Assembly (NCBI GenBank): GCA_964481345.1
Contig: CAYZTC010000008.1
Coordinates: 1-50,039 of the forward strand
Length of the DNA stretch: 50,039 nt
DNA from: an uncultured Candidatus Saccharibacteria bacterium
GTDB taxonomy: Bacteria > Patescibacteriota > Dojkabacteria > SC72 > JAFGCJ01
Direction: 5' to 3'
In this document: one piece after another, positions 19-43,161 of the stretch
Layout: each line of letters starts with the position of its first letter
Position numbering within the stretch: the first letter of the stretch is position 1
Notes under the pieces: generated by a model
The model's database searches: none
Seen by the model: only the letters and a program-made list of their open reading frames with translations
What the model was told of the DNA's origin: nothing
Position numbers and translations under genes: made by a program

Positions 19-54
19 GTATGGCTCGCCATACGAAGCCTTGGCATAGTATGG
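19..54. repeat. 30-bp REP-like palindromic insertion at the tRNA-Phe 3' end
   Basis: GTATGG(19-24)-CTCG-CCATAC(29-34)-GAAGCCTTGGCATA-GTATGG(49-54); the second GTATGG includes the tRNA CCA. Related core GCCATACGAAGC near 42384. Confidence 0.7.
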
Positions 55-127
55 TGCCGAGGACCAGAATCGAACTGGTGACCCTTCGATTTTCAGTCGA
101 ATGCTCTACCAACTGAGCTACCTCGGC
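52..127 (-). tRNA. tRNA-Phe(GAA)
   Basis: Reverse complement GCCGAGGTAGCTCAGTTGGTAGAGCATTCGACTGAAAATCGAAGGGTCACCAGTTCGATTCTGGTCCTCGGCACCA; cloverleaf, GAA anticodon, CCA encoded. Confidence 0.97.
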
Positions 128-40563: not shown

Positions 40564-41637
40564 TTAAGAAACTGTATCACCACCACCAGTCTTACTCTCT
40601 TCCGATTTCTTACTACTTTTCCTCTTTGAAACCAAATAGATAATCACACCAACAGCTATTAAAACAAGAACAATACCAAGAACGACTAAAATGACTCCCC
40701 AATTTGTACCTTCCAAATCTCCATTCCCTACGGCTATATCCTCTCCAGGTCCGTCCCCGCTACTTTCCTCCACACCGGCCTCTGACGTTTCAGCCCCAGA
40801 TATCTTTAAAGAATAGTTAATAATTTCGCTACTACACCACATATCACAAACAACCGCAACATAGACATAATCATCTTTCTCTGCAGTAACAGATGCTTTG
40901 ACTATTGCCCCTGGATTTGAAGCATATTCCTGTACTATAACTTCTCGATCACTGTCATATATATACAACTCAGGTTGTGCCTCCTCAGAAGGCGTTATCT
41001 CAATGCCAAGAGTTTGACCTTCTTCAATATTTATCTTGTAATAATCATCTTCATCACTACCTTCCTCCCCAGAAAGATAGCCTGTATAGGTTCCAGACCC
41101 AATATTTAGCGCACTGCCAAAACCATCACCTACATCTGACTGTGTTTCTGCATCATAACGATTAGTCACCGACAGATCCAAGCCAAATGAATCTATGTCC
41201 CATGTATCACTCCCCACTTTGAGATAATATTTATAGGAATCTTCATCTGCATTCGGAAGCCAAGAAACTGTAATGGATTCTTCTATTCCATAAATTGCAT
41301 CACTTGCTTCAACTAACTCCTCTTCATCTTCACTATACAAACTTAAAATTGCGAAAGCACCATAGTCAGGACTGGCAGGAGCGAATGTCCCTATTACCTG
41401 CAGCTCTTGCCCAGGTTTTAGACCATCAATATAAAAGTATACCATCTCACCATCCTCTAAGCCGCCACCCTGGTATGACCCGACTTCTATCTCAACTGCA
41501 CTTTCAAAACTATCTCCGCCCTCTACTGAGGTTTGAGCATAGACATTATTCTGCATACCCATGATCCCGACCAGAAACACCCCACAAAAGAAACTAATAA
41601 CTACCTTTGCCAAGGAACTTACCTTATGTTTTATCAT
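40564..41637 (-). CDS. Acidic surface protein with two PPC-like domains and a C-terminal membrane anchor
   Basis: Signal peptide (VYA-Q), repeats GDSFESA..I..GSY.G / GDGFGSA..I..GTY.G, DEDDYYKI, TM plus basic tail. Confidence 0.75.
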   Translation of the reverse strand: MIKHKVSSLAKVVISFFCGVFLVGIMGMQNNVYAQTSVEGGDSFESAVEIEVGSYQGGGLEDGEMVYFYIDGLKPGQELQVIGTFAPASPDYGAFAILSLYSEDEEELVEASDAIYGIEESITVSWLPNADEDSYKYYLKVGSDTWDIDSFGLDLSVTNRYDAETQSDVGDGFGSALNIGSGTYTGYLSGEEGSDEDDYYKINIEEGQTLGIEITPSEEAQPELYIYDSDREVIVQEYASNPGAIVKASVTAEKDDYVYVAVVCDMWCSSEIINYSLKISGAETSEAGVEESSGDGPGEDIAVGNGDLEGTNWGVILVVLGIVLVLIAVGVIIYLVSKRKSSKKSEESKTGGGDTVS

Positions 41638-41833
41638 ATCTTTAAACTAAAAAATGTTATCTGTAAATAGACTACTTATCTTCACTTTTATTGTCAAGAC
41701 ACTCATCATTAATTGTTACTGAAGAAAATACCAGAGTCTAATAAGCTTAACCAAATTATAAACATATCAGAGTAACCATTTAGGTCGTACTGGACTCGAA
41801 CAAGTGATCAGTTGACGCCAGGAAATAAGACAT

Positions 41834-42155
41834 ATGTATTTCGTGTGCGAATTTCGTAGTTTGGGGAATTTTGCAGTAAACCTGATAAATCATGACCGAA
41901 ATACCAAGCTCGAATTACTAATTACTCGAATTTTGCAACAGCAAAATTCATGGGTGATACTGAACTTGTCCTTCGGCAAGCTCAGGACTTAAACCTGTAA
42001 TCTGTCCACACTTCGAAGTGAGATACATGTATTTCGTGTGCGAGTTTCGTAGTTTGGGGAATTTTGCAGTAAACCTGATAAATCATGACCGAAATACCAA
42101 ATTCGAATTTCTAATTACTCGAATTTTGCGACAGCAAAATTCATGGGCGATACTG
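41834..42155. repeat. 129-bp tRNA-linked direct repeat (41834-41962 and 42027-42155)
   Basis: 193-bp period, six mismatches counted by eye; each copy ends in the tRNA-Val 3' terminus. Confidence 0.95.
41964..41990. repeat. 23-bp REP-like insertion inside a tRNA 3' fragment
   Basis: GTCCTTCGGCAAGCTCAGGAC with ACTT repeated 23 bp apart. Confidence 0.7.
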
Positions 42156-42218
42156 GAATTGAACCAGTGACCTTCACAATGTCAATGTGACGCTCTAAAC
42201 CAACTGAGCTAATCGCCC
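42144..42218 (-). tRNA. tRNA-Val(GAC)
   Basis: GGGCGATTAGCTCAGTTGGTTTAGAGCGTCACATTGACATTGTGAAGGTCACTGGTTCAATTCCAGTATCGCCCA; CCA not encoded. Confidence 0.95.
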
Positions 42219-42266
42219 ACTAATTAATTCTGCTAGACTTTTTCTTTCAAGTTCCTTTTCAATTCA

Positions 42267-42320
42267 CTAAACCTCCGCCAGAGGCGGGTCCGCCTTTAGC
42301 GGAAACTGAGCTAATTGCCC
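42267..42320 (-). pseudogene. tRNA-Val(GAC) 5' fragment interrupted by a 30-bp palindrome doublet
   Basis: CTAAACC + TCCGCCAGAGGCGGG-TCCGCCTTTAGCGGA + AACTGAGCTAATTGCCC versus tRNA CTAAACCAACTGAGCTAATCGCCC. Confidence 0.8.
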
Positions 42321-42442
42321 AAAACTTAGCAGAATGAATATTCCTTTATAACAACTATTAATATTTGACAGAACAAACTACCAGCCATACGAAGCATTAC
42401 TTCACCAAAGACTACGTAAATGTGAACCTCATGCGTAGTATA

Positions 42443-42479
42443 GAGCTAATCGCCCTTCGACAGGCTCAGGGCAAGCCCT
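42443..42479. repeat. Second tRNA-Val 5' fragment with a 23-bp REP-like insertion
   Basis: GAGCTAATCGCCC (42443-42455); minus strand GGG-CTTG-CCC-TGAGCCTGTCGAA-GGG; GCCCT repeated 23 bp apart. Confidence 0.8.
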
Positions 42480-42536
42480 AAATACCTGTATATTAAGATC
42501 TTAATAATATCCAACTTTTAAAGATATTCTGTCGAA

Positions 42537-42557
42537 GCCCTGAGCGAAGTCGAAGGG
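42537..42557. repeat. REP-like element downstream of clpP
   Basis: GCCCTGAGCGAAGTCGAAGGGC. Confidence 0.7.
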
Positions 42558-42579
42558 CCCCGTCGTAAAAAACATTACT

Positions 42580-43161
42580 TCACTTGATGATCTTATCAAC
42601 AATCCCATACTCTAGTGCCTCTTTCGAAGACATGTATTTATCTCTATCTGCATCCTTCTCAATCTTTGACTTAGACTTTCCTGTTTGCTTTGAAAGAATA
42701 GTATACAAACGATCTCTTATATCCAAAAGATTTTTTGCAGTAATCTCAATATCCGATGCCTGACCTTCAAGACCACGAACTATAGGCTGATGAATCATAA
42801 TTTCAGCATTGGGAAGAGCATATCTTTTCCCTTTTGTACCAGAAGAAAGTATCACTGCTGCCATACTTGCTGCAGCACCTACAGCTATAGTAGATACATT
42901 ACACTTTACGTAGTTCATTGTGTCTACTATGGAAAGTCCAGCGGCGATCTCACCACCATAGCAGTTGATATACATCTTTATATCTTCAGAGGGATTTGCC
43001 TTTTCAAGATAAAGAAGCTGGGCAATAATCAGATTTGCCATATTAACATTCACCTGGTTTCCAACAAAAATAATCCTATCCTCAAGTAACCTTGAGTAAA
43101 TATCATAAGCTTTTTCCCCTCTTGAGGTCTTTTCAATAACTGTAGGAATCAACATTGCCAT
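42580..43161 (-). CDS. clpP: ATP-dependent Clp protease proteolytic subunit
   Basis: YDIYSRLL..RII, AASMA, IMIHQP, GQASDI, DRD. Confidence 0.98.
   Translation of the reverse strand: MAMLIPTVIEKTSRGEKAYDIYSRLLEDRIIFVGNQVNVNMANLIIAQLLYLEKANPSEDIKMYINCYGGEIAAGLSIVDTMNYVKCNVSTIAVGAAASMAAVILSSGTKGKRYALPNAEIMIHQPIVRGLEGQASDIEITAKNLLDIRDRLYTILSKQTGKSKSKIEKDADRDKYMSSKEALEYGIVDKIIK

Follow-up and report, generated by a model that had tools for sequence, protein, structure and literature searches.

How does an intact tRNA gene come to lie among partial copies of its own two ends? The question is raised by the tRNA-Val(GAC) gene at 42144..42218, on the minus strand of the window studied here. The window is an entire contig (C8, 50,039 nt) of a small genome of the Candidate Phyla Radiation (CPR)/Patescibacteria type, which comprises 824,095 nt on 15 contigs (~36% G+C, 97% complete) with 45 tRNA genes and a transfer-messenger RNA gene. 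A preliminary description had placed the gene among dead copies of its own ends, with 5' copies upstream and 3' copies downstream, and, with the corrections given below, our alignments agree on this arrangement around a gene that ARAGORN and Rfam find intact. The same polarity governs the copies found at other tRNA genes of the genome and is absent from one genome of the same family. We tentatively read the locus, with a confidence that stops a little short of even, as a stack of scars left by repeated rearrangements that duplicated gene ends and were later colonised by short palindromes.

Dead gene ends around tRNA-Val(GAC)

The two fragments upstream of the gene, which like the other features of the locus are read on the minus strand, are copies of its 5' end. 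Fragment #1 (42267..42320) consists of tRNA nt 1-17 (42320-42304) and nt 18-24 (42273-42267), split by a 30-nt insert. Its first part (42321-42304) matches tRNA nt 1-18 at 17/18 positions (E 5e-4) and its second part continues the tRNA beyond the insert at 7/7, such that the joined fragment matches tRNA-Val(GAC) at 23/24 positions, with 18/24 for the runner-up among the 45 tRNAs. Fragment #2 (42443..42455) is identical to tRNA nt 1-13 (13/13, E 0.002), with tRNA-Lys(CTT) and tRNA-Ile(TAT) as runners-up at 11/13. Each of the two upstream copies thus fits the adjacent gene better than any of the other 44 tRNAs, as had been proposed; the suggestion that divergence rises with distance from the gene fails on this side, where the near fragment matches at 23/24 and the far one at 13/13.

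The downstream side is a tandem repeat with a period of 193 nt (170 nt without a 23-nt insert), whose unit comprises the 3' two-thirds of the tRNA and a 120-nt trailer module that we call module X. The repeat extends over 177 nt at 86% identity, with the flank co-duplicated in register. Copy A of module X (42024..42143) opens with a 9-bp hairpin right behind the discriminator base of the live gene, and copy B (41831..41949) is 93% identical to it over 128 nt. Between the two lies fragment B (41950..42023), a copy of tRNA nt 29-77 that, once its insert is removed, is identical to tRNA-Val(GAC) in 37/50 aligned columns and scores 43 against it, vs 28 for the next tRNA. Fragment C (41781..41830), beyond copy B, is T-arm-like, has a differing acceptor strand and stands in register with fragment B in the 193-nt repeat. 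Its match to tRNA-Val(GAC) (41807-41781) amounts to 17/20 or 20/27, depending on the comparison, and is not specific, since tRNA-Val(CAC) and two tRNA-Pro reach 19/27 and the alignment scores are 29 vs 28. Of the two 3'-end copies previously proposed, fragment B therefore stands, and is longer than had been thought, whereas fragment C cannot be assigned to tRNA-Val(GAC); when other tRNAs are allowed to compete, fragments #1, #2 and B still fit this gene best and fragment C does not distinguish between them.

These fragments do not behave as matching halves of an older gene into whose middle a fresh copy has recombined, as the preliminary description supposed. Fragment #1 changes G5, giving a mispair with C68, fragment B changes G69, giving a mispair with C4, and the acceptor strand of fragment C does not fit at all. 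Downstream, the 3' part of the tRNA is instead repeated in tandem along with 120 nt of flank. Compensatory changes between the outer halves were considered and rejected; one compensatory-looking change in the T-stem of fragment B depends on the 2-nt register of the insert and was not used. Nor is this a split or permuted tRNA gene, as an intact gene is present and the outer pieces do not pair.

Two of the fragments are split by short palindromes. The insert of fragment #1 (42274..42303) is a 30-nt double hairpin resembling a REP doublet, lodged cleanly between tRNA nt 17 and 18; it folds as DNA at -10.4 kcal/mol, and its 14-nt core has 7 genomic copies, at least 3 of them inside long open reading frames (ORFs). 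The T-stem of fragment B holds a 23-nt hairpin insert (41963..41985, register ambiguous by 2 nt) from a family whose 15-nt core has 5 genomic copies, and the 28-nt stretch containing it (41960-41987) folds as DNA at -6.0 kcal/mol. No GTAG or CGTC tag was found at the flanks of any copy of these two families; CTAC before a hairpin is present in canonical tRNA trailers. Three fragments had been described as broken by different palindromes, and for two of them this is correct, while the third is merely bounded by repeats. We read both palindromes as late colonists of dead DNA; insertion into a live gene would be selected against. The idea that a palindrome first kills the gene loses its force here, for both inserts lie within fragments that are truncated elsewhere, and colonisation after death explains the data equally well.

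The upstream fragments alternate with promoter-like modules that recur at other tRNA genes of the genome. Read along the minus strand from clpP, the order is module 1, fragment #2, a trailer-like start with a hairpin, a partial trailer hairpin with module 2, the doublet-split fragment #1, a 48-nt spacer, the live gene, copy A of module X, fragment B, copy B of module X and fragment C. Module 1 (42456..42572) is 117 nt long, contains two short palindromic repeats and recurs immediately before nt 1 of two intact genes, at 87% identity for tRNA-Lys(CTT) and 85% for tRNA-Ile(TAT). The trailer-like start and hairpin directly after fragment #2 (42401..42442) have a 9-mer in common with the trailer of tRNA-Gly(TCC), and the hairpin occurs only once in the genome; judged by its sequence, this outer fragment passes directly into a trailer of the canonical type and has the look of a gene emptied of its body. 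Module 2, with its partial trailer-type hairpin (42322..42400), has counterparts in front of tRNA-Lys(TTT) (93% over 43 nt) and of tRNA-Asp (82% over 55 nt). The architecture upstream of tRNA-Asp is homologous to that of fragment #2 and follows the same order (the end of module 1, 13 tRNA nt, a CCA-like join to a trailer hairpin, module 2, gene), yet the 13-nt piece there is Asp's own, such that each of the two loci carries a fragment of its own tRNA. The AT-rich 48-nt spacer directly upstream of the live gene (42219..42266, TTGAAA at -44) resembles in its layout the region upstream of tRNA-Val(GAC) in relatives. Among the 40 relatives searched, matches to the locus are limited to the tRNA, ~43 nt upstream of it (alignable in two genomes, G035 and G037) and the 30-nt doublet (in G002), and none of modules 1, 2 and X was found. 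A scan for promoters and terminators returned 1 promoter-like site vs 2.9 expected.

A CCTTCG-type family related to the palindromes keeps close to tRNA genes, as 8/10 matches to the module-1 palindrome query lie within 250 nt of one. At the tRNA-Phe gene of the same window (52-127, minus strand), an 11-nt copy of the 5' end stands 104 nt upstream (232-242) with a CCTTCG-type palindrome directly after it; the ~115-nt region upstream of this gene and the corresponding region of tRNA-Leu(CAA) (contig C11) share 70% identity.

The live gene itself is recognised by Rfam (72.4 bits), by ARAGORN (42143-42219, minus strand) and in an alignment with the genes of 9 relatives, and does not encode CCA. 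Its T-loop reads TTCAATT vs TTCGAGT in relatives' genes, a type partly kept in fragments B and C. Because this T-loop is identical to that of tRNA-Ile(TAT), which also carries module X behind it (90% identity), the present 3' end of the gene may have come in jointly with the module. The neighbouring genes are clpP (42580-43161) and an unannotated 357-aa ORF (40564-41637), between which no recombinase or integrase ORF was found. Each of the three module X copies bears an antisense ORF, 50-71 aa long and conserved in its N-terminal half, that reads into the tRNA sequence (41834-41992 and 42018-42170 on the plus strand of the window, and L182:348-563); it is probably spurious. The genome encodes a tRNA-Ile with the anticodon TAT, and after the module X behind that gene comes a 123-aa ORF of the four-helix-bundle/23S rRNA IVS family (L182:578-949, G000:C10), bracketed by a 35-nt direct repeat derived from module X, which suggests a small inserted unit.

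Copies of gene ends at other tRNA genes

To place the locus in its genome, each of the 45 tRNAs was compared with its own 1-kb flanks, with other tRNAs masked. The screen yielded 17 same-strand matches at 10/45 tRNAs and no opposite-strand copy. Eight matches are 5'-end copies, all eight upstream and seven of them 72-104 nt away; eight are 3'-end copies, all eight downstream; the remaining one is an internal piece, also downstream. When tRNAs were set against the flanks of another tRNA, five permutations of the 45 gave 3 matches in total, vs 17 in the real comparison. Two further cases came from outside this screen, tRNA-Pro(GGG) from a screen for exact repeats, with a 27-nt repeat spanning -19 to +8, and tRNA-Pro(CGG) from inspection, bringing the number of affected tRNAs to 12 in 0.82 Mb. 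Because about a quarter of the genome's tRNA genes show copies of their own ends, the pattern suggests that an active process, as yet unexplained, repeatedly remodels the sequence next to tRNA genes. In the filtered screen for exact direct repeats of at least 12 nt at a spacing of 40-400 nt, 20/49 repeats lay at tRNA genes, and the other 29 are comparable to the 31 found genome-wide at a control spacing of 1040-1400 nt.

The pattern is not general among relatives. In a genome of the same family (G001), the same self-flank screen gave 0 matches for all 49 tRNAs, and among 54 tRNAs sampled from eleven relatives there were three 3' matches and no 5' match. Fragments are absent at 8/9 of the relatives' tRNA-Val(GAC) loci; these genomes are too divergent to stand in for empty sites. 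When contigs from metagenomes and genomes were scanned with ClpP as anchor, no close relative emerged for an empty-site comparison, the best ClpP relatives being Patescibacteria bins at no more than 64% identity. Clusters of tRNA genes with ~125-215 nt spacing do occur in relatives.

What surrounds the fragments is as consistent as their orientation. In 10/11 cases, the stretch that precedes a 5' fragment shows no relation to the stretch separating that fragment from the gene (p>0.05), and in 7/11 cases the sequence that follows the fragment has a 9-mer in common with a tRNA trailer, vs a background of 417/2000 random 35-mers (21%). The piece at tRNA-Asp matches five trailers in this way, that at tRNA-Gly(GCC) three, and that at tRNA-His a 13-nt stretch of the Asn trailer. 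Since CCA, a short CTAC-type linker and a hairpin follow these fragments in the manner of a canonical tRNA trailer, the upstream units look, as far as sequence can tell, like genes without a body, in which a promoter of their own and the first 8-14 nt are followed by a trailer. Among the 3' copies, the outer one at tRNA-Pro(CGG) retains CCA and a canonical trailer, CCA having been lost from the live gene, a layout that fits an insert bringing a new gene end. Breakpoints cluster at nt 8-14 and at the T-loop. GTAG stands at tRNA nt 7-10 in 6/10 affected tRNAs, a count made in affected genes only and not used as evidence.

Related structures were seen elsewhere. The one protein gene start among the exact repeats, with a 20-nt repeat, belongs to a YebC-like gene (G000:C11:2762-2893), the first 26 nt of which, including the start codon, recur 106 nt upstream, the two copies being separated by an 86-nt insert that contains a hairpin, the same pattern as at tRNA 5' ends. 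A structured module of ~110 nt (83-94% identity between copies) lies behind three tRNA-Ser genes (GGA, GCT and TGA, on contig C1) and tRNA-Gly(GCC) (contig C9; L171-L173 and L175); it begins with a T-stem-like GGGAT and ends with ATCCC and the 3' strand of an acceptor, a layout suggestive of insertion into a T-loop. Downstream of tRNA-Leu(CAA) (L176, G000:C11) and of tRNA-Lys(CTT) in another genome (L199, G003), related inserts of ~80 nt with the same initial 13-nt motif occupy the same T-loop position, after TTCG, in dead 3' tRNA copies, that is, in two genomes and at two different tRNAs. An Rfam search of 16 tRNA loci at E values up to 1 returned tRNA and sub-threshold noise only, leaving both module X and the Ser/Gly module unmatched.

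The genome offers few enzymes that could act on this DNA. It contains six Y1_Tnp (RAYT-like) transposase ORFs, of which the two that were scanned match the NCBIfam model REP_Tyr_transpos best, at 61-65 bits and thus below its cut-off of 80, and only two tyrosine recombinases, both Xer-like, on contigs C6 and C10. Reverse transcriptase (PF00078) and DDE_Tnp_1 transposase (PF01609) had no match in this 97%-complete genome, and an RNA-mediated origin was set aside, as no reverse transcriptase match provides an enzyme for it. The flanks of the RAYT-like genes carry repeat families other than those in the Val fragments, and Y1 genes, present in 27/41 genomes of the order, do not set this genome apart. 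RAYT-like Y1 genes lie directly upstream of a same-strand tRNA at two places, G000:C2:97415-97879 and G000:C5:9403-9840 (Ala-GGC and Pro-GGG), and the arrangement recurs in relatives (G001:C2:19505-19843 and G005:C1:13975-14319); tRNA-Ala(CGC) carries a ~105-nt tail of a RAYT-type element without the gene.

Origin of the fragments

In the explanation we favour, the locus would have undergone several separate rearrangements, each of which copied nothing but one end of the tRNA-Val(GAC) gene and set a different flank module between that older end and the gene in use. Upstream, this would leave two dead units, in which tRNA nt 1-13 or nt 1-24 stand behind a promoter-like module of their own; the outer unit would pass straight into trailer-type sequence, like a gene that has lost its tRNA body. 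Downstream, a unit of tRNA nt 29-76 and the 120-nt module X would have been repeated in tandem. The 30-nt and 23-nt REP-like palindromes would then have landed in the dead pieces, where insertion should cost nothing. The strict polarity would arise because any duplication of a gene end leaves the partial copy outside, and only events that keep one intact copy survive. We infer this order of events, the neutrality of the pieces and the involvement of an enzyme; the RAYT-like HUH transposases are the sole mobile-DNA enzymes found besides the two Xer-like recombinases. Two other candidates were rejected, namely plain tandem duplication as a source of the 5' fragments, whose flanks are unrelated in 10/11 cases (it does fit the 3' side of Val), and a single mobile family at the junctions, where 7/14 hairpins are unique in the genome and most inserts have no second copy.

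Several observations weigh against this explanation. No enzyme or donor was identified, and no empty site was found in a close strain, the best ClpP relative standing at 64%. Module X is much better preserved between its copies (93%) than the tRNA part is in fragment B (74%); the module may for this reason be under selection or gene conversion, and some of the pieces may accordingly not be inert. Most of the sequence lying between repeats is unique and lacks shared termini, which makes a single transposon family unlikely as the source, and the near-constant repeat spacing of ~100 nt is unexplained, with 8/12 inserts being 86-93 nt long. The innermost upstream spacer resembles the native promoter layout of relatives, which clashes with a simple order in which the inner piece is the newest, unless the incoming DNA came from a relative. 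A 5' fragment followed by a trailer could equally be a full tandem copy whose body has been deleted, a step for which the favoured explanation has no need.

There are two serious rivals, neither of which we consider likely. One is that the fragments are classical att scars, in which tyrosine-integrase elements entered the 3' part of tRNA genes, or rarely the 5' part, and brought a replacement end, their bodies later being deleted to ~50-750 nt. The same-strand repeats run from an inner point to the end of the tRNA as att repeats do, and their lengths of 8-27 nt lie within the att sizes of 8-69 bp given in PMC6563490. In further support of this, the outer 3' copy at tRNA-Pro(CGG) keeps the CCA and canonical trailer next to a live gene without CCA, the T-loop of the live Val gene is unlike that of relatives and equal to that of the other tRNA with module X, and short inserts bounded by 3' repeats also occur in relatives. 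The preliminary description was right that the 3' side has the form of att scars, but neither an integrase nor an element body is present: the only tyrosine recombinases are Xer-like and on other contigs, and the inserts at the Val locus, 48-224 nt long, hold no gene remnant. An element-borne copy also leaves unexplained how Val fragment #2 and tRNA-Asp share a homologous insert yet carry their own 13 nt, and it strains belief that elements at 12 tRNAs of a 0.82-Mb genome should all have shrunk to much the same size. The other serious rival, likewise improbable on balance, holds that whole genes were duplicated in tandem by unequal recombination, possibly at small repeats, and that the copies were then gutted by deletions and palindrome insertions. 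It accounts well for the true tandem repeat with its co-duplicated flank on the 3' side and for five 5' fragments (His, Val #2, Asp, Gly-GCC and Arg-CCT) that continue into an apparent (C)CA and a canonical trailer, like a gene lacking nt 14 to ~74, and tRNA clusters with a spacing of ~125-215 nt are known from relatives. Random decay, however, cannot yield 16/16 end pieces on the outer side, and the unrelated upstream flanks of fragment and gene in 10/11 cases and the clustering of breakpoints at nt 8-14 and the T-loop also count against this rival.

The remaining alternatives are less probable still. The cycle put forward in the preliminary description, in which a micro-palindrome breaks the only copy, an intact copy recombines into the middle and the halves are pushed apart, draws on the clean palindrome inserts in two fragments and on the dead copies with T-loop inserts that adjoin live tRNA-Leu(CAA) here and tRNA-Lys(CTT) in G003. 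The outer 5' and 3' pieces, however, are not complementary halves, fragments end where no palindrome stands (as at nt 24 of fragment #1), homologous repair would remove an insert instead of leaving halves, and 7/14 junction hairpins are single-copy and thus no mobile family. The data do not call for such a cycle and in part speak against it, and we give it little credence. That the fragments are functional, serving as decoys or as processing or insulator signals in tRNA leaders and trailers, seems to us quite improbable: several repeats are perfectly identical (27, 20, 20 and 16 nt), the ~100-nt spacing is regular and module X is well conserved in three copies, but the pattern is not conserved among genomes (none of the 49 tRNAs of G001, and no 5' copy at 54 tRNAs of relatives) and the fragments carry mispairing changes and inserts. 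An artefact of assembling a metagenome bin can be dismissed almost entirely. The region is rich in repeats, at which short contigs break; against this, Logan contigs from 4 runs tile 41300-43000 and reproduce every junction without differences or indel variants, a single contig spanning 42071-42480 crosses the gene and both 5' fragments, and a 13-nt fragment lies below the length of any assembly k-mer. These runs stem from 2 samples of one study, possibly the source of the assembly, and are in this sense not fully independent, and they rule out the simple misassembly that the preliminary description had asked to be checked.

A further reading deserves mention as a doubtful proposal. In this lineage, RAYT-like HUH transposases might drive an undescribed process on tRNA gene ends, either repeatedly installing new promoter or trailer cassettes of ~90 nt while duplicating 8-27 nt of the end, or cutting out the bodies of redundant tRNA copies; GTAG at tRNA nt 7-10 with the D-arm, and the CTAC-tagged trailer hairpin, would then be read as REP-like sites. 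If so, tRNA flanks would be a zone of turnover and offer a way to swap tRNA promoters.

Relation to known systems

Duplicated tRNA 3' ends routinely mark integrated elements; duplicated 5' ends have, to our knowledge, seldom been reported, and we know of no case in which REPs create duplicated gene ends. The palindromes described here may be likened to the nested small dispersed repeats of cyanobacteria that Elhai and colleagues reportedly described in 2008. Literature searches on tRNA gene fragments or REPs in CPR/Patescibacteria returned nothing relevant. What is unusual is that the polarity holds strictly across the genome, that 5' copies are frequent, that the repeats are ~100 nt apart and that the sister genome differs. 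A specific mechanism, if true, would explain the turnover of tRNA promoters and trailers in very small genomes, and would make repeats flanking tRNA genes in CPR bins unreliable as signs of prophages or islands, a warning for annotators.

Two known systems come closest. Integration at the 5'-distal part of tRNA genes is documented but "considerably less frequent" (Williams 2002; Zhao and Williams 2002; both as cited in PMC6563490). Such att duplicates resemble the present fragments in being same-strand copies of the terminal 8-50 nt of a tRNA outside an insert, in the tandem repeats of the 3' side and in the outer 3' copy with a native trailer, as at tRNA-Pro(CGG). They differ in that the locus described here has no integrase and no element body, that the inserts are mostly ~50-150 nt, that 5' copies are as common as 3' copies and that homologous inserts occur at two tRNAs with their own repeats. 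REP and REPIN sequences with their RAYTs (Di Nocera et al. 2013, PMC3733652) are unlike the palindromes of the Val locus, which bear no GTAG or CGTC tag, and the repeats beside our RAYT genes belong to other families. They are like them in being short, GC-rich palindromes, single or doubled, present in a few to ten copies and in part intragenic, and this likeness extends to the six RAYT-like genes of this genome and to the CTAC-tagged hairpin in its tRNA trailers.

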